Origin: an uncultured cyanobacterium | GTDB lineage: Bacteria > Cyanobacteriota > Cyanobacteriia > Phormidesmidales > Phormidesmidaceae | Assembly (NCBI GenBank): GCA_963838725.1 | Contig: CAWISM010000021.1 | Span: forward strand, 123,742 to 147,741 | Length of the DNA stretch: 24,000 nt | Reading direction: 5' to 3' | Shown here: in pieces, positions 9,069-23,914 of the stretch | Layout of the letters: each line of letters begins with the position of its first letter | Position numbering within the stretch: the first letter of the stretch is position 1 | Position numbers and translations under genes: made by a program | Notes under the pieces: generated by a model | Seen by the model: the letters and a program-made list of their open reading frames with translations, nothing else | What the model was told of the DNA's origin: nothing | Database searches by the model: none

Positions 9069-9644
9069 CTAGGCATCTTCTGGAGAGCTAGAACGCAATT
9101 TAATATTGATACTGCCGTTGGGTTCTAGGGTGGCGGTTTCTATCTGTTCTTCTATTTTCTGCCAGGAGATGGCCGTTTTGAGTGGATTGCTTGCTGAGTC
9201 TAGATCGGTGAAAGTACCTTGCGATCGCATCACAACTTCTAGATCTTGCGAGGTAAGATGAGTTTCTCTTAACACTTGTTTGTCTACCTTGCCGTTTTTA
9301 ATTAGCAGCTTGGGTCCACCTTTGATCCAGGATTCTAACCAGGCAAACCGGAACGCAGCAGACGAGAGTAGCCGATGCATTAGTACTAGGGCAAACGCAG
9401 AAAGCAAAGTAGGGAAAAACGGCGACGACCCACTGATAGCTCGGCTCAATGTTGCCCCTAGCATGATGCCTATAATCACATCAAAAGTGGCATACTTACC
9501 GGCAAAGCGGCGATCGCCTAGTGCTCTGACCATTATCAGCGCACTGATATAGACAAACACCGCTCTAGCGCACATCTGCCCCACCGAAATGTTATCCGCG
9601 CTCAGCCCTAAAAGCCCGTCAAGCAGCCGACCAAAGAGATCCAT
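9069..9644 (-). CDS. DUF421 (YetF-like) membrane protein
   Basis: N-terminal TM region RAVFVYISALIMVRALGDRRFAGKYATFDVIIGIMLGATLSRAI and a C-terminal soluble part. Pattern typical of DUF421. Confidence 0.55.
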   Translation of the reverse strand: MDLFGRLLDGLLGLSADNISVGQMCARAVFVYISALIMVRALGDRRFAGKYATFDVIIGIMLGATLSRAISGSSPFFPTLLSAFALVLMHRLLSSAAFRFAWLESWIKGGPKLLIKNGKVDKQVLRETHLTSQDLEVVMRSQGTFTDLDSASNPLKTAISWQKIEEQIETATLEPNGSINIKLRSSSPEDA

Positions 9645-9785: not shown

Positions 9786-10310
9786 CTATCTTTTAGGCTT
9801 GCCGCCTGCCCACTGGTCGCCGACGATATTGGGTTGGGCCAAGATATAGCCTGCGATCGCATCTAAATCATCATCAGTCAAATCCCGCATTCGAGGAAAC
9901 AAATCCGATCTGAGGGTTGAGGGATGCAGTTCCTCGAGCGATCGCAATCCGTCGTAGGTAGTTGGATTGTTCAAGTAATCTACGATTCCTATAACGCTAT
10001 CGCGCGCAGGCGTCGCATTTGCTAAAGTCTCTAGCCCTAGATCGACGTCTGGATTAGTTTTTGAGGCTCCGTCTATGTGGCACTGAGCGCAGCTACCGTT
10101 GAACTTCCGCTGTCCTTGGAGGAATTGTTGAGTTGTTAGGGTAACTGACTCTCCGACGTCGTTGAGAGCGACGGTGCGGTTGGTAGGATTGATTTCAACG
10201 GCGATCGCATTCTGCATCACAAAAAAGGTGAGCATTGCAACTGTCAAACAGATATAGATCGATAGTGCTTTGGTCAAAATGCTTTTGAGAATGTGAATCA
10301 TGGTACTCAT
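9786..10310 (-). CDS. psbV2: Cytochrome c-550 (PsbV) paralog, PSII extrinsic subunit
   Basis: Signal peptide ending AIA/VE. Haem motif CAQCH. Matches PsbV through ANATPARDSVIGIVDYLNNPTTYDG...ELHPS...LFPRMRDLTDDDLDAIAGYIL...WAGGK. The distal His (ELHPS) is retained. I prefer ATG 10310 (GAGAG upstream, 4 nt after the nblA stop) to the track start at 10373. The paralog number is nomenclature by context. Confidence 0.85.
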   Translation of the reverse strand: MSTMIHILKSILTKALSIYICLTVAMLTFFVMQNAIAVEINPTNRTVALNDVGESVTLTTQQFLQGQRKFNGSCAQCHIDGASKTNPDVDLGLETLANATPARDSVIGIVDYLNNPTTYDGLRSLEELHPSTLRSDLFPRMRDLTDDDLDAIAGYILAQPNIVGDQWAGGKPKR

Positions 10311-10314
10311 CTCT

Positions 10315-10539
10315 CTATTGAGAAGGTTTTGATTGAAACAGAATAGATTGAGAGTATTGATCTTGAGGAACATTCGTGGCGCTCAGCAAGTGATTGATCA
10401 AATTGTCTCGAACGATAATCTGTCGCATCAGTTCAACACTGTATGATCGAGCCTGCTCTAGCGATAAGTTCTGAGCCTTGTCCTTTACTTTTTGCAGCGC
10501 TTGCTCTTGTTCTAGATTGAGTTGACCGAGGATATTCAT
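10315..10539 (-). CDS. nblA: NblA-like phycobilisome degradation adaptor (74 aa)
   Basis: LNLEQEQALQKVKDKAQNLSLEQARSYSVELMRQIIVRDNLINHLL follows the NblA pattern (LSLEQEF.L......V..LS.EQA...L.E..RQMMVKDN.I..LLK). Flanked by psbF and psbV paralogs at 23-nt and 4-nt spacing. Confidence 0.75.
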   Translation of the reverse strand: MNILGQLNLEQEQALQKVKDKAQNLSLEQARSYSVELMRQIIVRDNLINHLLSATNVPQDQYSQSILFQSKPSQ

Positions 10540-10562: not shown

Positions 10563-10697
10563 CTACCTTTGAATGAATTGCATAGCCGCAATCGATCCTA
10601 AGAAAAACACGGTTGGAATGGCTAGCGCATGAACGGCTAGCCACCGGATAGTGAAGATCGGATAGGAAACAGGCTGTTCGCGCTCGATATTTATCAT
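10563..10697 (-). CDS. psbF2: Cytochrome b559 beta subunit (PsbF) paralog, 44 aa, missing from the ORF track (<60 aa)
   Basis: My translation of the minus strand is [44 protein letters not shown]. It is near-identical to the PsbF consensus (..[36 protein letters not shown]), including the haem-ligand His. GGAGA lies 9 nt upstream of the ATG (10707-10711, minus strand). Confidence 0.9.
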
Positions 10698-10745
10698 GAT
10701 TCGATTTCTCCAAACTAGGATGCGCTAGACTAAGGTGTGTTGGAT

Positions 10746-11582
10746 TTATGCGATCTCTGGCGTGATTCGGCTGTAGAACTGACCGAGTATTTTGACAGTC
10801 ATTGCTGGTTTAGAGCCAAAGTCTGTATCCGACGGCTGCTGACTTTCAAACGAACCCGAGATTTCGCCTGTCGACTGGTTGACCCGGTCAACTTGCAAAA
10901 CAATGTTTCCGGTTCCCACCTTGAAAGACTTGTTGTTTTGACGAGAAAAAGCCTCTCTATCGGCCTGAATCGGGATGCCAACTGCCGCATCGTAGCCAAC
11001 TGCTAGCCCTCGACCTTTGGGATCGATAAAGCTAGAGGTGCGATAGGGCGGCACATCAAAACTGCCAGCAAATCGAGTAGAGGGGCTAATAGTATCTATC
11101 GCTGCTGCTGTTTTGGCTACGAGCCCTTTGATAGTGAACAGCAAGGGGACGCGATCGCCACTAGGAATTTGAACAGTGACAGGCTGAAAGTCAAATCCCC
11201 CTTGTTCAACAAACGTTATGGCTCCATTCGGCGATTTCTGTAATTCTCCACTCACCTGGTCGAGCGTAAAACTAGAACGAGTCAGCAATTTGCCTTCCAC
11301 GAATCTGCCTGACTGCTTCTTTAGCTGACCGTTTATAGAGGGGAACGTCTCGACTAGAAACGTTTTGGGCTGTAGGCACAGCGATCTAATTTGATAGGGC
11401 TGACTGCCTTCTAAGGGAATAGCGTCCATATTAGTCCCCGTCAGCGCTGGACAATCGTTGGCTAGCCCACTGCCTCTAATGTCATCGTAGGTAAGCTCCC
11501 CTGCTACTTTGGGACTGCTACAGGCAGTGAGCAGTCCTAAAGTCAGTGCTAGAACCGTTGCGATCAAAGTCTTATGTATCAT
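10746..11582 (-). CDS. psbO2: Manganese-stabilising protein (PsbO) paralog with lipoprotein-type signal peptide
   Basis: LTYDDIRGSGLANDCPAL, CLQPKTF, GFDFQPVTVQIPSGDRVPLLFTIKGLVA, FDVPPYRTSSFIDPKGRG, STGEISGSFESQQPSDTDFG all follow PsbO. N-terminus is MIHKTLIATVLALTLGLLTAC. Confidence 0.9.
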   Translation of the reverse strand: MIHKTLIATVLALTLGLLTACSSPKVAGELTYDDIRGSGLANDCPALTGTNMDAIPLEGSQPYQIRSLCLQPKTFLVETFPSINGQLKKQSGRFVEGKLLTRSSFTLDQVSGELQKSPNGAITFVEQGGFDFQPVTVQIPSGDRVPLLFTIKGLVAKTAAAIDTISPSTRFAGSFDVPPYRTSSFIDPKGRGLAVGYDAAVGIPIQADREAFSRQNNKSFKVGTGNIVLQVDRVNQSTGEISGSFESQQPSDTDFGSKPAMTVKILGQFYSRITPEIA

Positions 11583-11670
11583 TCTTAACTCAGATAAAGA
11601 ACTTATCTATTTCTTGTGCGGCCCTGTTTCCAAGGCAGCTTCTTCTGGGCATTGAGTGAAATTTTCTAAC

Positions 11671-11698
11671 AGGTTGTTTCAGACAGGTTGTTTCAGAA
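11671..11698. repeat. Perfect 14-bp tandem direct repeat x2 (caggttgtttcaga) in the divergent psbO2/apcD5 intergenic region; candidate regulator binding site
   Basis: Copies at 11671-11684 and 11685-11698, 89-116 nt upstream of the psbO2 ATG. The core GGTTGTTT recurs upstream of the psbA paralog (22754-22761). Confidence 0.6.
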
Positions 11699-11773
11699 AG
11701 TGCCAATCGAAAATTCCACCGGAAGTGCCATTAAGCATTCATTCTGCTGTGTAGGTTATCGAAGACTTCTGAA

Positions 11774-11894
11774 GAACTTATGAAAATACGGATAAAGCCA
11801 CAGACTCGAATTATGAAGTCATCAATTCAAAGCCAAAGTTTTGAAAAGAAAGCAAATATTGTGGGTTTGAAGTCACCTAGATTTTCATAAGTTC
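11774..11894. repeat. Perfect 14-bp inverted repeat (gaacttatgaaaat / attttcataagttc) separated by 93 nt, upstream of the apc array
   Basis: Arms at 11774-11787 and 11881-11894. A partial third copy (agaacttat) lies near 11598. Confidence 0.8.
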
Positions 11895-12009
11895 TCCATC
11901 TTTGTTCTTTATAGTGACCTTAACTTCCTCACAATTGAAGTACCCTCTGTTGAAGAAACAGTTGAAGAAGTTTTGTTTTATTCCCTTTGAGTAGTGAGAA
12001 TCAAGTACT

Positions 12010-12486
12010 ATGAGCCTAGTCACAGAACTAATTTTGAGCGCAGACAGCGAAGCTCGATATCCTGCGCCCAAAGAGCTGAGAATCTTTCAAGACTTTGTAA
12101 AAACTGGAGAGCAGCGGGTTCGAATCGCCAAAGCTTTAGCAGCTAACGAGCAGAGAATTGTTCAAAACGGCAGTCAGAAGTTTTGGGAGCGCTGTCCGAA
12201 TACACCTAGCAACAGCGGCGTCGATCGGAAAACCGCATCCTGCCAGCGCGATCAGGGCTGGTACATTCGCTTAATTGCCTACTCTATATTAGCTGGCAGC
12301 GAGCGTCCGCTAGAAGATATCGGTACAGTCGGCATCAAGGAAATGTACAACAACCTGGAAATCCCGATCAGAAATATTGCAGAGTGCATGCGCTGTCTAA
12401 AAGAAGAGGCGATGGCCGTTTTGAGTGATGAAGATGCTCAAGAAGTCGCCGCCTATTTCGATCTAATTATTCAGTCTTTGTCGTAG
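12010..12486 (+). CDS. apcD5: Allophycocyanin alpha-type subunit, far-red paralog (ApcD5, formerly ApcA2, by position next to apcB2)
   Basis: MSLVTELILSADSEARYPAPKEL..., CQRDQGWYIRLIAYSILAG and YFDLIIQSLS follow ApcA/ApcD. Carries PNTPSNSG in place of the canonical VVSPGGNAYG. The bilin Cys (residue 78) is present. The paralog number comes from remembered synteny only. Confidence 0.85.
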   Translation: MSLVTELILSADSEARYPAPKELRIFQDFVKTGEQRVRIAKALAANEQRIVQNGSQKFWERCPNTPSNSGVDRKTASCQRDQGWYIRLIAYSILAGSERPLEDIGTVGIKEMYNNLEIPIRNIAECMRCLKEEAMAVLSDEDAQEVAAYFDLIIQSLS

Positions 12487-12547
12487 CGCTTGAGTGATAT
12501 TCACACACTATTTGTTTAAAACACTATTCGTTTAGGAGATTTTTCCT

Positions 12548-13033
12548 GTGCAAGATGCTATCACCACTTTGATCAACACGTCCGATGCTCAAGGCAAATA
12601 TCTAGATGATTCATCGCTAGACACACTGCAAGAATACTTTCGCAGCGGCGATCTGCGAGCGAGAGCGGCAATGACCATTAGCGCTAACGCCTCTACTATT
12701 GTCACCAAGACAGTAGCAAAGTCTCTGCTATATACCGATATTACTGGCCCTGGCGGCAATATGTACACCTGTCGCCGCTACGCCGCTTGCATTCGCGATA
12801 TGGACTTTTTCTTGCGCTATGGTACCTATGCCATGCTAGCAGGCGATGCTTCAATTCTAGATGAACGGGTTCTAAACGGATTGAAAGAAACCTACAACTC
12901 TTTGGGTGTGCCTATCGGCGCGACTATCAGGGCGGTTCAGGCGATGAAAGAAGTGGTCAACGACATGCTAGGCGCTGAAGCTGGCAAAGAGGTCGGTCAC
13001 TACTTTGATCATATCTGTTCTGGTTTGAGCTAG
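12548..13033 (+). CDS. apcB2: Allophycocyanin beta subunit, far-red paralog
   Basis: GTG start gives [20 protein letters not shown] (canonical ApcB N-terminus). [25 protein letters not shown] and [15 protein letters not shown] lies 10 nt upstream. Confidence 0.9.
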
Positions 13034-13046
13034 TCGTTGTTTCTCC

Positions 13047-13098
13047 CAGCGCTCTATTAGCTAGTGGTAGTCGATAGCGGCGGCTAGTAGAGGCGCTG
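13047..13098 (+). terminator. Strong intercistronic stem-loop after apcB2 (partial terminator or RNA-stabilising hairpin)
   Basis: ccagcgctctattagc (13047-13061) pairs with gctagtagaggcgctg (13083-13098): 15 bp including one T-G wobble pair, with one bulged G and a 21-nt loop. It begins 14 nt after the apcB2 stop and is followed by tcttatc (weak U tract). Confidence 0.45.
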
Positions 13099-13129
13099 TC
13101 TTATCAGAGCCGTTATAGGAGATTTTGTG

Positions 13130-13609
13130 ATGAGTGTGATTTCTCAGGCGATCGCAACTGCCGATCGTGAAGTTCGCTATCTCTCTAAAGGAGAGCTAGA
13201 TGCGATCAACCGTTTTTTCAACAATGGCCCCCAGCGATTGAGAATTGTTTCTATTCTCAACAGCAACGCAGAAGAAATTGTTGAAAAAGGCGCTAGGCGA
13301 TTTTGGCAGCGACATCCAATTACCCCTAGCAACAGCGACAATCCGCAATTTCAAGCATCTTGCTTGCGAGATCAGGCTTGGTTTATCCGACTGATCTCGT
13401 ATGCGGTGGCGGTCGGCGATGTCGACCCGCTAGAGGCCAGCGGCGTGAGAGGCGCTAGGGAAATGTATCTTTCTTTGGAGGTGCCGCTGAGGTCGGTGGC
13501 GCTGTGTATGCGATCGCTCAAAGAAGTCACGCTAGAGATGCTGAGCGTAGAAGATGCCGCTGAAGTGGGGCCGTACTTTGACTATCTGATTGCGGGGCTA
13601 ATGCCCTGA
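13130..13609 (+). CDS. apcD2: Allophycocyanin alpha-type subunit, far-red paralog (ApcD2 by position)
   Basis: MSVISQAIATADREVRYLSKGELD, PITPSNSD, ASCLRDQAWFIRLISYAVAVGD, YFDYLIAGL. ATG 13130 is preferred to GTG 13127 because the conserved N-terminus is MS[IV][VI]. Confidence 0.85.
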   Translation: MSVISQAIATADREVRYLSKGELDAINRFFNNGPQRLRIVSILNSNAEEIVEKGARRFWQRHPITPSNSDNPQFQASCLRDQAWFIRLISYAVAVGDVDPLEASGVRGAREMYLSLEVPLRSVALCMRSLKEVTLEMLSVEDAAEVGPYFDYLIAGLMP

Positions 13610-13655
13610 GCCTTGAATTTACTTGAATTTGGTTTACTTCGACTTGGAGACCGCT

Positions 13656-16016
13656 ATGACCGATCGAACCAATGGAGGGAGCCCGGTTGTGCATCCGCAG
13701 CAGTACCACACGGTGCCGACGGCTGTGATCAATGGCGCACATCAGCGCGATCGCTATCTTAGCCATAGCGAAACGCAGACGCTCTCGACTTTTTTAAAAA
13801 CAGGTTTGCAGCGCCTAGAAATTGCTCAAACGCTAGCCCAGCACGCTAATGAGATTGTGGCGGCTGGCGGCAAACGTATCTTTGTCGGCGGCAATCCGAT
13901 GGCTTATTTCGAGCCGCCAGAGGAGCAGGTCGGCATGCCAGGATCTGGATACTTTGTGGCAGAAGACTATCTCTCCCCGAAATCTAGAACTCACCAGCAG
14001 GGCAATGGACATAGTGTCCAAAGTTCGATACCTTCTATCGCCAACCCAGTTGCCTGGTTCAAGGGATTGTTCTTTAGCGGCAAGCCCAGCGTGCCTAACA
14101 GCTTTCAGACGATCAACATTAGGGACTATGGCAAAGTGCGGATGAAGCGCTCCATGCGCGATCTAGGCTGGTTTTTGCGATATATCACCTATGCGATTGT
14201 GGCCGGTGATACGAGTATTATCGCCGTCAATACGCGAGGACTGCGAGGCGTCATTCCTGAAGATGTAACCGTAGCAACGACAGTGGCGCTGCGAGAAATG
14301 CAGTGGAAATCACTCTCTTATTTTCCAACAGAGTCAGCCGCTGCGGCGCTAGTTCGGCGATATTTTGATGTGTTGATTGCCGACTATCAGGTAGAAAAAC
14401 CCTCCGATCGATACCGCACGGGCGTCTCAAAACACGACCAGGGCCTCAGCCTGCCAGAAAGCTATGAAGATAGTGGCAGCGCCATCCCTAGATGGGTGGT
14501 GAAGCCTACTCTGCCCGATAGCGAAAAAGAGGCGGTGATTAGAGCCGCCTATCGACAAGTTTTTGAGCAAGATATTAGCGCTCTGAATGTAGCCGAACTG
14601 GTTCAGCCTATCTCTGAGCTAAAAGGCGAGCACGGGTCGATGGAACTGTTCATTCGGCAGCTGGGCAAATCGCGCCTCTATCGGCAGTTATTTTACGAGC
14701 CCTATACAATTAGCCGAGCAATTGAGCTGGCCTGTCGTCACTTCCTCGGACGAGGGCTGAGCTGTATGGAAGAGTTTCAGCGATACTTTGAGCTAGTTGC
14801 CGATCAAGGATTCTCGGCTTTGATAGATGCATTAGTTAGCTCACAAGAGTACGCTGACTATTTTGGTGTCGAAACGGTACCGTACATACGTAGTCTAGGC
14901 GTAGAAGCTCAAGCCTGCCGTAACTGGGGGCCACAGCTAGATCTATTTAGACACAGCGCGCCGGTTCGCAAAATGCCGCAGTTTGTCACCGCCTTTGCTA
15001 GCTACCGTCAACCTTTGCCGAATCAACACCCTTACGGCATAGGCAACGATCCGCTAGAAACGCAGTTTGGCGCTATCTTTCCGCATGAGACCACCAATCC
15101 TGCGGCTCAGCCCGTTCACTTTGGCGAAGACAGTCGCCGGATTTTGGTCGGTCACGCCCACAGAAAAAGTCACGCTGAAATCTCTCAGCAGATTTTCTCT
15201 TTGAAGACACCGCCGCACGGCACGCCCAAGCAAACAAACCAGCCGCCGAGTTCTGTTCCCAGCTTTGACAGCGCTCAGCATTCTGTTGAATCAGTTATTC
15301 TGGCCGCCTATCGACAGGTGTTTGGCTGTGAGGTACTAGACAGTCAACATCATAGAGTGGCGGAAACTCAGCTCAAAGGCGGGCTGATTACCGTGCGAGA
15401 GTTTGTTCGACAGTTAGCGAAGTCTCGGGCCTTCAGACGGGCTTATTGGGAAAATCTCTATATGACAAAGGCCGCTGAAATTATCCATCGGCGACTGCTA
15501 GGACGACCCACTTACGGACGCAGAGAAACCAGCAAATACTATGATATTTGTGGTCGAAAAGGGTTCTATGCGCTAGTTGATGCGCTAATTGATAGCGATG
15601 ACTATCGTACAGCGTTTGGAGAGAATACGGTTCCCTATGAGCGCTACGTGACGCCGCGTGGATTGGCATTGCGATCGCCCAAAGGCCCGGTTGCGATATC
15701 GAAACTCAGAGATAACCCGCATACGGTTGGCGCGTACATGATGCGCTATCAGCCGCCAGAAACGACTATGCAGCCGCGATCGCACCTAGCGAATGCACAA
15801 GCAAATGGGCACTCGACGCCGACTAGTCGCGATGCCAACAATTCTCTTGAAAATCGCCAAGCCTTACCAACAGAGTCCGCGATGGCTGAAAAATCTGTTG
15901 CTTCGCGAGACTCTACTGCTTTACCAAATTCTACTGTTTCTGAAAACCCTGCGGCTTTAGAAGGCGAAGATCTGGCGATGGCCGGGGCCCGACAAGACGC
16001 TAACTCCTCAGATTAG
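13656..16016 (+). CDS. apcE2: Phycobilisome core-membrane linker ApcE, far-red paralog (two REP/linker domains, Cys-free phycobiliprotein domain)
   Basis: From ATG 13656 (GGAGA upstream): MTDRTNGGSPVVHPQQYHTVPTAVI matches the ApcE N-terminus (..ASGGS...RPQLYQTVP). PB-domain motif MRDLGWFLRYITYAIVAGD. Two Pfam00427-like REP domains, each opening with AAYRQVF (about 14.5-14.9 kb and 15.3-15.65 kb). Confidence 0.9.
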   Translation: MTDRTNGGSPVVHPQQYHTVPTAVINGAHQRDRYLSHSETQTLSTFLKTGLQRLEIAQTLAQHANEIVAAGGKRIFVGGNPMAYFEPPEEQVGMPGSGYFVAEDYLSPKSRTHQQGNGHSVQSSIPSIANPVAWFKGLFFSGKPSVPNSFQTINIRDYGKVRMKRSMRDLGWFLRYITYAIVAGDTSIIAVNTRGLRGVIPEDVTVATTVALREMQWKSLSYFPTESAAAALVRRYFDVLIADYQVEKPSDRYRTGVSKHDQGLSLPESYEDSGSAIPRWVVKPTLPDSEKEAVIRAAYRQVFEQDISALNVAELVQPISELKGEHGSMELFIRQLGKSRLYRQLFYEPYTISRAIELACRHFLGRGLSCMEEFQRYFELVADQGFSALIDALVSSQEYADYFGVETVPYIRSLGVEAQACRNWGPQLDLFRHSAPVRKMPQFVTAFASYRQPLPNQHPYGIGNDPLETQFGAIFPHETTNPAAQPVHFGEDSRRILVGHAHRKSHAEISQQIFSLKTPPHGTPKQTNQPPSSVPSFDSAQHSVESVILAAYRQVFGCEVLDSQHHRVAETQLKGGLITVREFVRQLAKSRAFRRAYWENLYMTKAAEIIHRRLLGRPTYGRRETSKYYDICGRKGFYALVDALIDSDDYRTAFGENTVPYERYVTPRGLALRSPKGPVAISKLRDNPHTVGAYMMRYQPPETTMQPRSHLANAQANGHSTPTSRDANNSLENRQALPTESAMAEKSVASRDSTALPNSTVSENPAALEGEDLAMAGARQDANSSD

Positions 16017-16203
16017 TCCTATGATTCCAACCCAAAGCAACGCTCCGGCTAGCCGAGCCCAGAATCCGCCGCTCGCTGCTGCGGCTCCTCGTTTGAGCCT
16101 AAGAGAACAACTGCGTACCAACAATCCTTTCAACTACCGACTCTGCATTAGCTGGTTCGGTGGTGTACAAATTCATCCTAAGTTTTAGACCTTTGTTGAC
16201 CTC

Positions 16204-16749
16204 ATGAGCATTGTTAAACAGATTATCTCGAATGCCGATGAAGAGCTACGCTATCCCACCCCCGGAGAGCTAGAGATGATTCGCAGCTTCTGTAAAACCG
16301 GAGCCAGCCAGATCCAGCTAGCCAAAACGTTAGAATCTCACGCTTCTACGATTGTCGAACGGGGCACTCGGAAGTTCTGGCAAATCTGTCCTAGAACGCC
16401 TAGCAACAGCGGCAGTCCTCGTAAAACTGAGGCGGCGCAGCGAGATATGAGCTGGTACATCCGCCTGGTTAGCTACTGTTTGCTAGCCGGAAACGATCAG
16501 CCGCTTAGAGAAATTGGGCTGCTAGGGATGAAGGAGCTATACACCAATATCGGCATTCCTCTAGACAACATTTTGCAGTATTTGCGCTGTCTAAAAGCGG
16601 AGGCGATCGCGCTACTTTCTGAAGCTGAGGCCGAGGCAATCATCCCCTACTTCGATCAAATTATTCAGGAGCTGGTGCGGCCCGGTCCTGCTTACTTTGG
16701 CATCAAGGATCGCAGCGTCAGTCAAAGTGCTAGACAAGCGGCGGCATAG
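16204..16749 (+). CDS. apcD3: Allophycocyanin alpha-type subunit, far-red paralog lacking the canonical bilin-binding Cys and carrying a C-terminal extension (ApcD3 by position)
   Basis: MSIVKQIISNADEELRYPTPGELE, PRTPSNSG, AAQRDMSWYIRLVSYCLLAG (Ala78, GCG at 16435-16437, where the other two alphas have Cys), YFDQIIQEL, then an extra ~20 aa VRPGPAYFGIKDRSVSQSARQAAA. Confidence 0.85.
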   Translation: MSIVKQIISNADEELRYPTPGELEMIRSFCKTGASQIQLAKTLESHASTIVERGTRKFWQICPRTPSNSGSPRKTEAAQRDMSWYIRLVSYCLLAGNDQPLREIGLLGMKELYTNIGIPLDNILQYLRCLKAEAIALLSEAEAEAIIPYFDQIIQELVRPGPAYFGIKDRSVSQSARQAAA

Positions 16750-16809
16750 TACCTAGAAGTTTACAAAATCATCTCAAAAGACCCCACAGTACATGACGAG
16801 GATACAACA

Positions 16810-17868
16810 ATGACAATTACGATGGGCTCGCTTGGCTCAGTCAAAGATAGAGTCAAACAGCTCGATGACTGGCTCAAGCGCGATCGCTTTGTTTTTATTG
16901 GCTGGTCAGGGCTGCTACTCTTTCCCTGTTCCTTTTTAGCGATCGGCGCTTGGTTTACCGGAACAACCTTTGTCACCTCTTGGTACACTCACGGCCTAGT
17001 GTCTTCTTATTTAGAAGGCTGCAATTTTCTCACCGTCGCGGTGTCCACACCAGCCGAGAGTATGGGCCATTCGCTGTTGCTGCTTTGGGGACCAGAGGCA
17101 AACGGAGACTTTGTGCGCTGGTGCCAGATTGGCGGGCTCTGGACATTTACCGCCCTGCATGGCGTGTTTGGACTAATTGGATTTATGCTCAGGCAAATTG
17201 AGATTGCTAGGCTAGTCGGGATTCGGCCTTATAACGCGATCGCCTTTTCCGCTCCAATCGCCGTCTACTGCGCCACGTTTTTGATCTATCCGCTGGGTCA
17301 ATCTAGCTGGTTTTTCGGCCCCGGCTTCGGCGTCTCTGCGATCTTCCGCTTCTTACTGTTCTTCCAAGGATTTCACAACTACACGCTGAATCCTTTTCAC
17401 ATGATGGGCGTGACCGGCGTTCTAGGCGGGGCGCTGCTCTGCGCTATCCACGGCGCGACCGTGCAAAATACGCTATTTAGAGACAACCAAAGTAAAAACA
17501 CTTTCAAAGGCTTTAGCACTACCCAGGGCGAAGAAACCTACTCCATGGTGACGGCCAATCGGTTTTGGTCGCAGATTTTTGGAATTGCCTTTTCCAACAA
17601 ACGCTGGCTGCATTTTTTCATGCTGTTTGTTCCGGTTACTGGCCTGTGGATGAGCGCTATTGGCATGGCCGGGCTCGCCTTTAATCTCAGAGCCTATGAC
17701 TTTGTCAGTCAAGAGATCAGGGCCGCTGAAGATCCTGAATTTGAAACGTTTTACACGAAAAATATTCTGTTGAATGAAGGACTGCGCGCCTGGCTCTCAG
17801 AAATGGATCAGCCTGCGAAAAAGTTTGTTTTCCCCGACGAAGTTCTGCCCCGTGGCTTTTCTGAATAA
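16810..17868 (+). CDS. psbD3: Photosystem II D2 protein, far-red paralog
   Basis: Near full-length match to D2: [97 protein letters not shown]. Confidence 0.93.
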
Positions 17869-17927
17869 ATCTCTGAATAAGAACAAACAATCCTTCGTCC
17901 ATAGTTTTCTCACCAGATCTTACTCAC

Positions 17928-19376
17928 ATGGAAACTCCACTCGAAACGATTCCAGATCTATCACTTTCTCTTCCGGCTGAAGCTAGCTCAATTTTGGCAC
18001 CTGCTGGCCCAGGCTATGACGAGGCCACTAGCGGCTATGCCTGGTGGGCCGGAAATGCTCGCCTGATTACCCCAGAGCTGACTGGGCGCTTTCTGGGTGC
18101 TCACGTCGCCCATGCTGGTCTAGTAGCGCTGTGGGCGGGCGGTATGCTGCTTTTTGAAGTCTCCCACTTTAACCTTTCCAAGCCGATGTACGAGCAGGGC
18201 TGTATCCTCATGCCCCACATTGCCACTTTGGGAATTGGGGTCGGGCAGTCGGGTGAAATTACCAGCATATTCCCCTTTTTCGCCATTGGCGTGGCCCACC
18301 TGATTGGCTCGGCAGTGCTGGGCATCGGTGGCATGTATCACGCGATCAAAGGCCCAGAAAAGCTCTACGGTTTCTTTCAGTTTGACTGGACCGATAAGGC
18401 CAAGGTCGCGCAGATTTTGGGCTTTCATATCGCGATTTTGGGCATCTTTGCCCTGCTCTTTGCGGCCAAAGCGATGTACTGGGGCGGTCTGTACGATCCT
18501 TGGGCACCTGGCGGCGGCGATGTTCGTCTGGTGACTAACCCGACGCTAGACCCGCGTATTATCTTTGGCTATTTGATCAAAAGACCCACGGGGGGAGAAG
18601 GCTGGATTGTTAGCGTCAACAACTTAGAAGACATTATCGGTGGCCATATCTGGATTGGCTGCATTTTAATTGCCGGGGGCATTTGGCATATTCTTGTTCC
18701 GCCTTTGCGCTGGACTTATAATCTCTTTCCTTGGACAGGAGAAACCTATCTCTCGCAGAGTTTGGGGAATGTCGCTGGTCAGGCGTTTATTGCAGCCGCC
18801 TTCATTTGGTTCAACAATACGGCTTATCCCAGTGTGTTCTATGGGCCGACGGTTCCAGAATCTTCGCAGGCGCAGTCTTTTGTGTTTTTGATGAGAGACC
18901 AGGGCATGGGCGCGGATGTCGCCTCGGCGCAAGGGCCAACGGGGCTGGGTAAATATTTGCAGCGATCGCCGACTGGAGAAATCATCTTTGGCGGTGAGAC
19001 CATGCGGTTTTGGGATGCGCGGGCTCCTTGGCTAGAGCCTTTACGCGGCAAGAATGGTTTGGATTTAGACAAGCTTCAGCACGACGTTCAGCCCTGGCAG
19101 CTGAGGCGGGCCGCAGAATATATGACCCACTCACCGATCGGCTCACTGAACTCTGTGGCGGGTCTGGCAACAGAATCCAATGCATTCAACTATGTTTCTC
19201 CTAGAACCTGGCTAGCCTCGGCGCACTTTATCTTTGGCTTCTTCTTTTTAGTTGGTCATCTCTGGCATGCTGGCCGAGCGAGAGCGGCAGCGGCTGGGTT
19301 TGAGACTGGACTAGATCGTGAAAATGAGCCAGTGCTGTCGATGGCACCGATTGATCCGAGCTTGCGTTCTGACTAG
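17928..19376 (+). CDS. psbC2: Photosystem II CP43 protein, far-red paralog
   Basis: [53 protein letters not shown] (Mn-cluster second-sphere E/R retained), [22 protein letters not shown]. An in-frame TGA at 17874-17876 excludes any start upstream of ATG 17928. Confidence 0.93.
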
Positions 19377-19411
19377 ATAAGAATCGATTGTTTATTTCAG
19401 GAGAAAATCCG

Positions 19412-20941
19412 ATGGGACTCCCTTGGTATCGCGTTCACACCTCTGTGCTGAACGATCCGGGTCGATTAATTGCTGTGCATATCATGCACAATGCCCTCTG
19501 CGCTGGGTTTGCCGGTTCGATGCTGCTGTTCGAGCTGGCGCTGTTTGACCCGAGTGACCCAGTCTTAAATCCGATGTGGCGACAGGGCTGTTTTTTGATG
19601 CCGTTCGTCTCTAGACTCGGCGTGGTGAATTCTTGGCAAGGCTGGAGCGTCACGGGTGAGACATTTACGAATCCAGGCTTTTGGACATTTGAGACGGTGG
19701 CGATCGCGCACATCATCTTCTCCGGTCTCTCTTTCCTTGCCGCCTGCTGGCACTGGGTCTACTGGGACGTGGCCACCTTCTTCGATCCCAAAACAGACGA
19801 ACCCGTGATCGATTTGCCCAAAGTCTTCGGCATTCACCTAACCCTAGCCGGAATTCTCTGCTTTGGCTTTGGTGCTTTCCATCTCACCGGTTTATTCGGT
19901 CCTGGCATGTGGGTGTCCGATCCGCTAGGACTCACCGGACATATCCAGGGCGTTGCCCCTGAATGGGGCGCAGCCGGATTCGACCCCCACAATCCGGGGG
20001 GCGTGGTCGCTCATCACATCGCCCTCGGCATCGTTGCCATTATCGGCGGACTGTTTCACATCTCTGTTCGACCCCCTGAATATTTATACAAAGGGCTAAG
20101 AATGGGAAACATCGAAGGCGCACTCGCCAGCGGGCTAGCCGTCTTCTTTTCAGGAGCTTTCATCGCCGCTGGGACAATGTGGTATGGCACGGCTACCACC
20201 CCCATCGAACTCTGGGGGCCGACGCGGTATCAGTGGGATCAGGGCGTTTTTCAACAGGCGATTAGCCGCCAAGTAAAAGCCAGTATCAACAATGGTAAAA
20301 GCCTCTCTGAGGCGTGGTCAGAGATTCCGACCAAACTCGCTTTTTATGACTACATCGGCAACAGTCCGGCCAAAGGCGGACTCTTTCGAGTCGGACGCAT
20401 GGTAGACGGTGACGGCCTACCCACTGGGTGGCTAGGTCATCCGGTCTTTAAAGACGGCGAAGGCAGAGAGCTGACAGTTCGTAGAATGCCAAACTTCTTT
20501 GAAAACTTTCCAGTGGTCCTATTCGACCAAGACGGCATCGTTCGCGCCGATATTCCTTTCCGCCAGGCAGAATCGAAATACGGCGTTGAACAGACAGGCG
20601 TAACCGTCAGCTTTTACGGCGGCGAGCTAGATGGACAAACGTTTAGCGATCCTAAAGACGTTAAAAAATATGCCCGTCGCGCGCAGCTAGGAGAGCCGTT
20701 CGAATTTGATCGCAGCGTCTACGACTCGGACGGTTTATTTAGAACCAGCAATCGAGGTTTCTTTGCCTTCTTCCATGTGATCTTTGGCCTGCTGTGGTTC
20801 TTTGGCCATATCTGGCACGGGCTGAGAGCGCTCTTCCAAGACGTGTTCTCTGGCATTGATCCGAGCCTCAGCACTGAGCAAGTGGAGTGGGGCTACTTCA
20901 AGAAAGTCGGTGATCCAACCTCTCAACAAACACCCGCGTAA
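19412..20941 (+). CDS. psbB2: Photosystem II CP47 protein, far-red paralog
   Basis: From ATG 19412 (AGGAG at 19399-19403): [26 protein letters not shown] is the canonical CP47 N-terminus. [26 protein letters not shown] near the C-terminus. The track start at 19388 (TTG) is rejected. Confidence 0.93.
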
Positions 20942-20988
20942 AAGCCAAATAAAGCGACAAGATGCACTATCATCCTGTCGCTTTCTAA

Positions 20989-21219
20989 ATGCAACCAACT
21001 GTTTCAACAAGGCGATCAATGCAACAAAAATACGTTTCCAACAAAGCTGCGCCTTTGCAGTATCCCCTAAGAAAGCTCAACTCCGAAGCGGGCAAAGTCG
21101 TTCCTGGCTGGGGTACAGCGCCCCTAATGGGGATTATGCTAGTTGCGCTTCTACTCTTTATCCTGACGATTCTTCAGGTGTATAACGGTACCGTTGTTGT
21201 TGAAGGTGTCAATATGTAA
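20989..21219 (+). CDS. psbH2: Photosystem II PsbH paralog
   Basis: [40 protein letters not shown] follows PsbH ([20 protein letters not shown]...). Alternative start at ATG 21019 would give 66 aa. Confidence 0.85.
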
Positions 21220-21660: not shown

Positions 21661-22740
21661 TCAAGCCCCAATCTGAGGAGCCTGCATAGCCACTCGAACA
21701 GCCTCTCCACTGGCCAAATCCAGCGGAAAGTTGTGAGCATTACGCTCATGCATGACTTCAAAGCCCAGGCTGGCACGATTGACGACATCTGCCCAGCTTG
21801 GCAGCACGCGACCTTGCGAATCTAGAACAGAATGATTGAAGTTAAACCCATTCAGGTTAAAGGCCATCGTACTAATCCCCAGCGCTACAAACCAGATACA
21901 AACCACCGGCCACGCTGCTAAGAAGAAGTGAAGCTGACGGGAATTGTTGAAACTAGCATACTGAAAGATCAATCGACCAAAGTAGCCGTGAGCCGCTAGA
22001 ATGTTGTAAGTCTCTTCTTCTTGGCCAAACTTATAGCCTTCGTTTTGAGACTGTGAGTCGCTAGTTTCTCTGACCAAGCTAGAGGTCACTAATGACCCAT
22101 GCATCGCGCAGAACAAGGAGCCGCCCAGCACCCCTGCAACGCCAAGCATGTGGAAGGGATGCATCAGAATATTATGCTCTGCCTGGAAGACAAACATAAA
22201 ATTGAAAGTACCGCTGATGCCCATCGGCAGACCATCAGAGAAGCTGCCCTGGCCGATTGGGTAGATCAAGAAAACAGAGATAGTCGCCGCGACTGGCGCA
22301 GAATAAGCAATGCAAATCCAAGGACGCATGCCCAGTCGATAGCTCAGCTCCCATTCTCGGCCCAGATAACACAGCAGCGCTGGGATGTAGTGGAAGGCGA
22401 TCATCTGATAAGGCCCCCCGTTATAGAGCCATTCGTCTAAGGTGGCGGCTTCCCAGATTGGATAAAAGTGAAGCCCAATGGCATTAGAGGTAGGAACAAC
22501 AGCAGCCGTAATAATGTTGTTTCCATACAGCAGCGAACCAGAAAGTGGTTCGCGGATGCCGTCGATATCAACAGGCGGTGCCGCGATGAAGGCCGTGACA
22601 AACACAGTGATGGAAACGCCAAGAAGCGGCAGCATCAAGACACCGAACCAGCCGATATATAAGCGGTTCTCGGTGCTAGTTATCCATCGACAGAATTGTT
22701 CCCATCGGTTGATAGTCGGACGTTGAATAAGGGTAGTCAT
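21661..22740 (-). CDS. psbA3: Photosystem II D1 protein, far-red paralog (functional D1, not chlorophyll f synthase)
   Basis: [38 protein letters not shown]. Retains the Mn4CaO5 ligand contexts: D170 ([10 protein letters not shown]), E189 ([11 protein letters not shown]), and H332/E333/H337/D342/A344 ([16 protein letters not shown]), followed by a 16-aa CtpA-type extension. Confidence 0.9.
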
Positions 22741-22978
22741 GTTTCTACAATACGGTTGTTTACGTGAAGAACCTTATTGCAGCAAAACAAAGTGGAGATG
22801 TCATGAAGAGATGAAAGTTTTCTATTAGAAAAGCAACAAAGATAGCAAGAAAAGCCAGACAAAGGCTGTGAAGCAATTGATTGAAAGCAAATGACGGTTC
22901 TGCTCGAAGTCGTGCCTACCGCGACGCCTATAATGAATGATGTCGAATGGCTAAGGATATAGACACCGCGCACAACCT

Positions 22979-23914
22979 ATGATGACTTCCTTCATTGATT
23001 ATCTACATGCCAGCTGGCAGATGCTGAGTTCGACTGTTTCTAGACTGACGGCTCGGCAGCGCTGGGTGCTGCCGAGCTTGGTGGGAGCCGTGTTTTGGTG
23101 GAGTGCGATCGCCCATCCAGCCGCAGCCTACCAGGTCCAAGTCTTGCCGACCAATCCAGTTCAAGGCAGCACGCTATCAGTCATCGTACAAGGCGATAGT
23201 AGTAGTTCACAGCTGCCAACCGTTACTGTAGACGGTGCTACCTATACCGCTTTTCCGCTATCCGACAATCGCTATCGTGCGCTCATCCCGACTAGCCCCA
23301 ACACAAAATCCGGTCGGATGACGCTGCGAGTAGAAGGCCCTGCCGGGACTAACAATATTGCTGTGGGGATTGGCGATCGCAGCTTCAACACTCAATATAT
23401 CAACCTCTCTCCCGGCCGCGCTGGCCTAGAAGGCACCGACTACGAGTTTGACAGCCTAGATGCGCTTCGCGCCCTGCGCACACCCACCCGCTACTGGAGT
23501 GGTCCTATGGCTAGACCCAGCAATGGCCGAGTCAGCTCTGCGTACGGCAACCAGCGCTACTACAACGGTGTCTTCGCCGAAGGCTACTACCACCGAGGCG
23601 TGGACTATGCGGCTGGCAACGGTGCTCCGATCTACGCGCCTGCCGCTGGCCAAATTGCCCTAGTTGGCCGCGAGTCAGATGGCTTTGTGCTCAACGGCAA
23701 CACGCTGGGTATCGATCACGGACAGGGCGTTGTTAGTGTGATGATTCATCTCTCTGGGTTTGCGGTAAATGAAGGCGATTTTGTGCAGCAGGGTCAGCTA
23801 GTCGGCTACATGGGCGCAACTGGATTCGCGACTGGGCCAAACCTGCACTGGGGACTATTTGTCAATGAGGTGGCCGTCGATCCAGTTCCTTGGCGATATG
23901 ACGGCATCGAGTAG
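22979..23914 (+). CDS. M23 (LytM) family metallopeptidase with N-terminal signal/anchor
   Basis: HRGVDYAAGNGAPIYAPAAG, GIDHGQGVVSVMIHLS, GATGFATGPNLHWGLF (HxxxD and HxH zinc motifs). N-terminal hydrophobic segment VLPSLVGAVFWWSAIAHPAAA. Confidence 0.85.
   Translation: MMTSFIDYLHASWQMLSSTVSRLTARQRWVLPSLVGAVFWWSAIAHPAAAYQVQVLPTNPVQGSTLSVIVQGDSSSSQLPTVTVDGATYTAFPLSDNRYRALIPTSPNTKSGRMTLRVEGPAGTNNIAVGIGDRSFNTQYINLSPGRAGLEGTDYEFDSLDALRALRTPTRYWSGPMARPSNGRVSSAYGNQRYYNGVFAEGYYHRGVDYAAGNGAPIYAPAAGQIALVGRESDGFVLNGNTLGIDHGQGVVSVMIHLSGFAVNEGDFVQQGQLVGYMGATGFATGPNLHWGLFVNEVAVDPVPWRYDGIE

Follow-up and report, generated by a model that had tools for sequence, protein, structure and literature searches.

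Photosystem II (PSII) cannot be assembled without cytochrome b559, yet what b559 does there is a matter of debate. One way to approach its function is offered by a natural beta-subunit isoform, found enriched in far-red PSII and always encoded alongside far-red isoforms of PsbO and PsbV. Such an isoform, PsbF2, has been described in Synechococcus sp. PCC 7335 as the product of a psbO1-psbF2-nblA-psbV operon (Gisriel et al., JBC 2022, PMC8689208). PsbF1 of the same strain is encoded in a normal psbEFLJ operon and is 75% identical to PsbF2, and both proteins carry the haem-ligand histidine (PMC8689208). Mass spectrometry of far-red PSII from PCC 7335 detected PsbF2 (86% coverage, 7 peptides) together with PsbF1 and a single PsbE (Gisriel et al.). 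The density at the beta position of b559 is fitted better by PsbF2 than by PsbF1 because of Ile27 and Ser35, an assignment from two side chains only that the authors themselves grade as tentative (PMC8689208). In dimeric far-red PSII (PDB 8EQM) PsbF2, PsbO1 and PsbV1 outnumber the other isoforms and are the ones modelled (PMC9843442). The models of both structures, 7SA3 and 8EQM, pair PsbF2 with PsbE and place a single haem b between two histidines. The authors describe the two psbF genes as 'not modulated by FaRLiP' (far-red light photoacclimation) and as lying outside the FaRLiP cluster (PMC8689208, PMC9843442).

A 2024 preprint (10.1101/2024.05.15.594131) treats psbF2 as an accessory FaRLiP gene, which 17 clusters carry between psbO2 and psbV2 (Table S8); these make up 70% of the clusters with psbV. 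The psbO paralog called psbO2 in this preprint is named PsbO1 in the PCC 7335 papers (PMC8689208, PMC9843442). The preprint reports far-red-biased expression for the flanking psbO2 and psbV2 genes, says that psbF2 alone 'lacks data' on expression in far-red light, and reports a short motif upstream of psbO. Its text gives neither a signature of the sequence nor an analysis of selection, does not spell out the motif, and does not list nblA as a member of the unit.

As psbF2, its operon, its peptides and its structural place are already published for a sister strain, the locus described here, carried by a 24-kb stretch of DNA that was analysed as a whole (hereafter the window), adds only another ortholog. 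What the present comparison contributes is an old and coherent psbF2 clade, a diagnostic signature in the stromal N-terminus, purifying selection on the clade, and a motif that lies upstream of the operon and recurs before the far-red apc and psbA3 units.

The psbF2 gene and its operon

The psbF2 gene of the window, which encodes a paralog of the cytochrome b559 beta subunit, occupies positions 10563..10697 of the minus strand and consists of 44 codons and a stop codon, giving a product of 44 amino acids. This product scores 66 bits in the Pfam family PF00283 (Cytochrom_B559), for which the cut-off is 30 (E=1.9e-18, far outside chance), carries the class signature described below, and is matched by 33 PDB PsbF chains at E<=1e-3, the closest of all being 7sa3_F/8eqm_F. 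The haem-ligand histidine is residue 23, located in the stretch RWLAVH (codon 10631-10629), and the hydrophobic segment covers residues 19-39; the product thus has the form of a b559 beta subunit, which is a chain of about 39-46 aa with one membrane helix. The C-terminus AAMQFIQR is the same as in the T. elongatus and PCC 7335 chains, and both Ile27 and Ser35 are present, as in PsbF2 of PCC 7335. A Shine-Dalgarno-like GGAGA (10707..10711, minus strand) is found 9 nt upstream of the ATG (10697-10695); most psbF2 orthologs have purine-rich runs 7-10 nt upstream of their starts. An earlier reading of this DNA, made from its letters alone (the sequence-only reading), had reported a 44-codon minus-strand psbF frame with the haem-ligand histidine and a GGAGA 9 nt before it, and both the exact translation and the position of the GGAGA bear it out. 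Its remark that the frame is invisible to the open reading frame track is explained by the length below which ORFs are usually not listed (60 aa by default). An ortholog in the metagenome-assembled genome J06614_10 (L016, 5995-6129) has an apparent GTG start (VTNYNREQP...) preceded by AGGAGA, and automated gene callers could miss or truncate it.

In order to find partners of the gene, we searched the whole 24-kb window by tblastn with PsbE, PsbL and PsbJ queries, and found no psbE, psbL or psbJ. The lone match was a weak cross-match of PsbE to PsbF, which is expected within one Pfam family. This agrees with the earlier observation that none of the three genes stands alongside psbF2, and the 48 nt that had been counted between psbF2 and psbO are correct, as the psbO ORF ends at 10746. 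The window gene is flanked by psbO on one side and nblA and psbV on the other, not by the genes of a psbEFLJ operon; placement after psbE is a feature of context and is not required for membership in the PsbF family. We conclude that psbF2 is a genuine, intact and conserved psbF paralog without a psbE of its own. By analogy with PCC 7335, and from general knowledge, we assume that the source genome has one psbEFLJ operon and no second psbE. A profile search with six PsbE sequences returned 3,342 near-identical matches, and psbF2-bearing assemblies were absent among the 120 that were listed.

The first gene of the operon is a psbO paralog (10746..11582, minus strand; PF01716, E=8.8e-92), whose product shares about 93% identity with 8eqm_O (562 bits, the next chain scoring 285 bits). 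It is followed by psbF2, by a paralog of nblA encoding 74 amino acids (10315..10539, minus strand; PF04485, E=4.8e-12) that begins 23 nt downstream of the psbF2 stop, and by a psbV paralog (9786..10301, minus strand; PF14495, E=1.8e-49), which encodes a cytochrome c550 with a CAQCH haem site and closes the operon. The psbV start is probably M25 of a longer ORF (10301), with M22 (10310) as the alternative; the gene call is 171 aa in a contig identical to the window (L001). All four genes are on the minus strand, separated by 48 nt, 23 nt and about 13 nt, and a terminator scan found no terminator-like sites between them; sigma-70 and terminator scans of the operon gave nothing informative. Directly downstream of psbV is a gene for a DUF421/YetF-family membrane protein (9069-9644, minus strand), which is also present in L001 and not in the other relatives.

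The sequence-only reading had missed nblA as the gene that comes next after psbF2. It is a gene for a phycobilisome degradation protein among genes that otherwise encode PSII subunits; NblA is also called in L001-L013, and has no counterpart in L014, L016, L017, L024 and L094. Because it is missing from several related loci, nblA is regarded as an optional passenger of the operon, and its position hints at phycobilisome remodelling coupled to the assembly of far-red PSII.

The psbO operon is divergent from a far-red apc/psb operon on the plus strand (12010..21219), which provides its FaRLiP context. The latter begins with three Phycobilisome-family genes (starts at 12010, 12548 and 13127), followed by the apcE-like linker gene apcE2 (13623-16016), a fourth gene of the allophycocyanin family (start at 16204), psbD3 (start at 16810; best PDB match 7sa3_D, 800 vs 675 bits), psbC2 and psbB2 (starts at 17928 and 19388), and psbH2 (20989-21219), which comes after psbB2 and encodes 76 amino acids including an N-terminal extension. 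The psbA3 gene lies on the minus strand (21661-22740), and directly after it there is a gene for an M23 peptidase (22979-23914, plus strand). No chlF, psa or rfp genes were found in the window. The window is one half of a FaRLiP cluster, and the cluster is apparently split in the source genome, as reported for PCC 7335. Since the best matches of PsbF2, PsbO and PsbD all come from PCC 7335, the window derives from a close relative of that strain. PsbV was tried as a further marker of kinship and rejected, because 8eqm_V and the PsbV of T. elongatus score equally against the window protein. PsbE, PsbF, PsbO, PsbV and PsbD chains of the PDB entries 9t5t and 9t5u also rank high against the window proteins, and these entries might represent another far-red or related PSII.

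Distribution, signature and selection of psbF2

Loci were collected in two ways, from contigs coding for the closest PsbF proteins and by scanning species-representative genomes with a PsbF2 alignment. The genome scan was limited to the best 80 of 598 stretches, so that the counts of psbF2-bearing species are lower bounds. Ninety-six psbF loci were classified without exception into psbE-F-L-J loci (73, or 76 with three later finds) and psbO-psbF-(nblA)-psbV loci (20). Three additional psbO-linked loci were recovered from more divergent proteins, so that at least about 22-23 such loci were fetched, and far-red apc genes lie beside the psbF copy in all of them. The layout of the window is repeated in L001-L019, L024 and L094-L096; in L011-L013, L094 and L096 the psbO-psbF string is enclosed by the cluster, with the apc genes on one side and chlF-psaA2 on the other. 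All recovered psbO-linked copies belong to marine Leptolyngbyaceae or Nodosilineales-type assemblies. The lineage of the window is Nodosilineales-type, as is the case for psbF2 in the preprint. The sole locus of Leptolyngbya JSC-1 among the best 80 of 598 stretches is a psbEFLJ locus.

The two classes are separated by their N-termini. The pattern M-x-N-x-x-R, accompanied by charged residues, is present in 12/12 unique psbO-linked sequences and in 0/51 unique psbE-linked sequences, in which the corresponding segment reads MTSN-x-PNQP. This test of the signature is conservative, because the set of PsbF1 sequences used for comparison is biased towards those resembling PsbF2. Ile27 is found in all 12 psbO-linked and in 6 of the 51 psbE-linked unique sequences. 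Ser35 occurs in 4/12 and 0/51, respectively, among the classified loci; it is also present in one psbEFLJ-linked protein (P0012) and is therefore not exclusive to PsbF2. Ile17 and Ala24 are the usual residues in psbO-linked PsbF proteins, Ala24 being found also in 9/51 PsbF1 sequences.

Comparison of the 12 distinct psbF2 coding sequences gave a pN of 0.104 against a pS of 0.69, and in the core (codons 12-44) a pN of 0.052 against a pS of 0.695. The pN/pS ratio is thus about 0.15 for the whole gene and 0.07 for the core, and the synonymous sites are saturated. The frame, whose disruption in close relatives the sequence-only reading had named as evidence against a gene, is intact in the relatives and under purifying selection there. 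The psbF2 clade is therefore old, coherent and subject to purifying selection, and psbF2 is not the product of a 'relatively unique and recent' duplication, as the 2022 paper had suggested (PMC8689208).

Two of the psbEFLJ loci deserve a separate description. A contig from JGI sample 3300040801 (L097, 3611-4521), the same metagenome that yielded the contig identical to the window, carries a canonical rubA-ycf48-psbEFLJ arrangement, and its PsbF1 has Ser35, like PsbF2. We considered it as the housekeeping psbEFLJ locus of the source organism and rejected it, because in tetranucleotide composition it comes only about 44th among 92 loci in resemblance to the window; it probably belongs to another cyanobacterium. 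In Elainella saxicola E1 (L073, 5687-6831) part of the b559 operon is duplicated in tandem, with the order psbE, psbF, a chimeric ORF, a second psbF, psbL and psbJ. The chimeric ORF joins the N-terminus of PsbL to the C-terminal half of PsbE and has no haem histidine; the second psbF encodes an identical protein from diverged DNA. Here an additional psbF has arisen in another way than in the psbO-linked loci.

A motif upstream of the far-red units

The 427-bp intergenic region between the apc and psbO operons contains two inverted copies of TTCATAAGTTCTYCA, and two matches were found in 0/100 shuffles. The copy that faces the psbO operon, TTCATAAGTTCTTCA (11770..11784, minus strand), lies 188 nt upstream of the psbO ATG. 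A -10-like TAACCT (11753-11758) follows 11 nt after TTCATAAGTTCTTCA, and the motif is thus at the position of a -35 box, with a transcription start predicted near 11745; a TAnnnT hexamer is found about 11 nt further on from the psbO-facing copies of the motif. The second copy, TTCATAAGTTCTCCA (11884..11898, plus strand), has the opposite orientation, faces the far-red apc operon, and is followed by a conserved TATAGT-like box. The apc-facing copy also has an extended conserved tail, tcTTTGTTcTTTATAGTGA. A related motif, TTCATGACATCTCCA (22793..22807, minus strand), faces psbA3 and lies 53 nt upstream of it.

When the pattern is relaxed to the 15-nt form TTCATRANNTCTYCA, it occurs three times in the window, each time upstream of and facing a FaRLiP unit, and not a single match appeared in 100 shuffles. 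The motif is present in 18/20 of the psbO-linked loci collected first and, in a slightly relaxed form, in L094 and L096; none of the 73 psbEFLJ loci has it (0/73). Its location at the -35 position is what would be expected for an activator-dependent promoter, and TTCATRANNTCTYCA is a candidate binding site of the FaRLiP response regulator. The motif of the window may correspond to the short motif that the preprint reports before psbO and gives as a figure (10.1101/2024.05.15.594131).

Another element of the same region is an exact tandem repeat, two copies of TGAAACAACCTGT with a 14-nt period (11669-11695, minus strand). It lies 87-113 nt before the psbO ATG, in what is presumed to be the 5' leader. 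We considered this repeat as a conserved regulator site and rejected it, as it is absent from all relatives.

The probable role of PsbF2 in far-red photosystem II

The ORF is the psbF2 gene of a psbO-psbF2-nblA-psbV operon, and we regard it as probable that this operon is activated together with the FaRLiP genes and that PsbF2 is a b559 beta subunit which pairs with PsbE in far-red PSII. According to this account, the four genes would be co-transcribed from a promoter whose upstream element is common to the far-red apc and psbA3 units, and the shared motif at -35 would switch the operon on along with the FaRLiP genes. PsbF2 would then be supplied with matching PsbO and PsbV isoforms during the assembly of far-red PSII. 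Structures and mass spectrometry of the ortholog suggest that PsbF2 would take the beta position of b559 beside the single PsbE from psbEFLJ, with the haem ligated by His23 and the PsbE histidine. The sequence-only reading had proposed that the beta subunit would have to pair with the housekeeping PsbE, and in the PCC 7335 models of far-red PSII the ortholog does make up b559 together with the only PsbE; the peptide evidence to which it had looked as a check is provided by the detection of the same ortholog by mass spectrometry. From its linkage and the shared upstream motif only, we infer that psbF2 may be far-red-specific. A functional difference from PsbF1, if any, would most likely reside in the stromal N-terminal tail (residues 2-11) and not in the nearly unchanged haem-binding helix. 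The importance of psbF2 hinges on far-red-specific expression and on a measurable effect on b559.

A rather unlikely extension of this account is that PsbF2 is a sixth far-red-specific PSII subunit, induced through the motif, which replaces PsbF1 and whose charged N-terminus, M-x-N-x-x-R-[E/D], is functionally distinct. If this were true, the N-terminus may shift the redox form of b559 and its part in a photoprotective side-path in an energy-limited reaction centre, or may instead assist in the docking of far-red allophycocyanin cores, whose genes are adjacent, and the natural exchange of one isoform for the other would offer a test of what b559 does.

The earlier suggestion that a far-red beta subunit could retune b559 or the pigments in its neighborhood fares less well. 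The substitutions in the membrane helix relative to PsbF1 are conservative (V17I, T24A, V27I and A35S), and this comparison lends no support to a retuning of b559 by PsbF2. To our knowledge, b559 binds no chlorophyll, and PsbF2 is not known to carry far-red-specific residues in contact with pigments. In PCC 7335 the Chl d is located at ChlD1 (PsbA3) and four Chl f are located in the core antenna, three of them in PsbB2; all Chl d/f sites of the structure are in PsbA3, PsbB2 and PsbC2, and none is at b559 (Gisriel et al.). Retuning of neighboring pigments is therefore unlikely, because the helix is almost unchanged and the Chl d/f sites all lie in PsbA3 and in the CP47/CP43 core antenna.

It is also conceivable that psbF2 is a constitutive, redundant spare that is interchangeable with PsbF1, and that its position in the FaRLiP region is an accident of the duplication of psbO and psbV. 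This would agree with the statement 'not modulated by FaRLiP' of the PCC 7335 authors (PMC8689208), with the similar scores of PsbF1 and PsbF2 peptides in far-red PSII preparations, and with a helix that is almost unchanged and whose variant residues occur in some PsbF1 proteins (Ala24 in 9/51, Ile27 in 6/51). However, every fetched locus (about 22-23) is linked to FaRLiP apc genes, several of them inside the cluster, and the upstream motif is common to apc and psbA3. The N-terminal signature (12/12 vs 0/51) and the strong purifying selection oppose the drift of a spare copy. Additionally, PsbF2 exceeds PsbF1 in dimeric far-red PSII (PMC9843442), and psbO2 and psbV2 are far-red-biased according to the preprint (10.1101/2024.05.15.594131). 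On balance we consider a redundant copy to be improbable.

A role of PsbF1 or PsbF2 outside b559, the other isoform being the one paired with PsbE, seems very improbable; it could be at a separate single-helix site in assembly intermediates of far-red PSII, such as that of the extra helix in 7SA3, or in a beta/beta haem homodimer. Haem-binding PsbF homodimers have been made in vitro, which counts for such a role. The idea of a separate site comes from the PCC 7335 authors themselves, who observed an unassigned transmembrane helix in apo-far-red PSII, a preparation that contains PsbF1 as well as PsbF2 and yielded no further protein without an assignment (PMC8689208). However, the extra helix is missing from the more complete dimeric far-red PSII, 8EQM (PMC9843442), and the sequence of PsbF2, which keeps the histidine and the whole helix, has no sign of a new binding mode. 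Finally, a frame of only 44 codons that is without its usual partners and below default ORF thresholds might be taken for a product of chance, or for a decaying pseudogene left over from the duplication of a psbEFLJ operon. This is refuted by the Pfam match (E=1.9e-18), by a frame that is intact in every related locus examined, by purifying selection (pN/pS of about 0.15, and 0.07 in the core) and by the detection of ortholog peptides.

The closest known protein, PsbF2 of PCC 7335 (S7335_3212, chain F of 7SA3 and 8EQM), has the same length as the window protein, is identical to it at 39/44 positions, and shares His23, Ile27 and Ser35. The five substitutions are I2T, E5G, V10I, V22I and T29S, and the window protein begins with MINIER, unlike most members of the clade, which begin with MTNxNR. 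Both genomes have the same four-gene operon with no psbE alongside. The window operon adjoins far-red apc genes, whereas the PCC 7335 papers place theirs outside the FaRLiP cluster; this difference may be a matter of definition. The layout described in the preprint is also found in the window, where psbF2 lies between psbO2 and psbV2 in the orientation of psbO2, and psbO2 is reversed upstream of the FaRLiP apc genes.

Canonical PsbF1 and the PsbF2 of the window belong to the same Pfam family, have the same length and the same haem-ligand histidine, and are nearly identical in the helix; overall, the window protein is 73-87% identical to the psbEFLJ-linked copies that were fetched. They differ in the N-terminus, as described above, and in their neighbors, which are psbO, nblA and psbV for psbF2 and psbE, psbL and psbJ for psbF1. 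With the core far-red subunits PsbA3, PsbB2, PsbC2, PsbD3 and PsbH2, PsbF2 has in common that its gene lies in or beside the same cluster and that its ortholog is enriched in far-red PSII. Unlike these core far-red PSII paralogs, psbF2 is not universal among FaRLiP clusters, being present in the 17 clusters of the preprint (10.1101/2024.05.15.594131).
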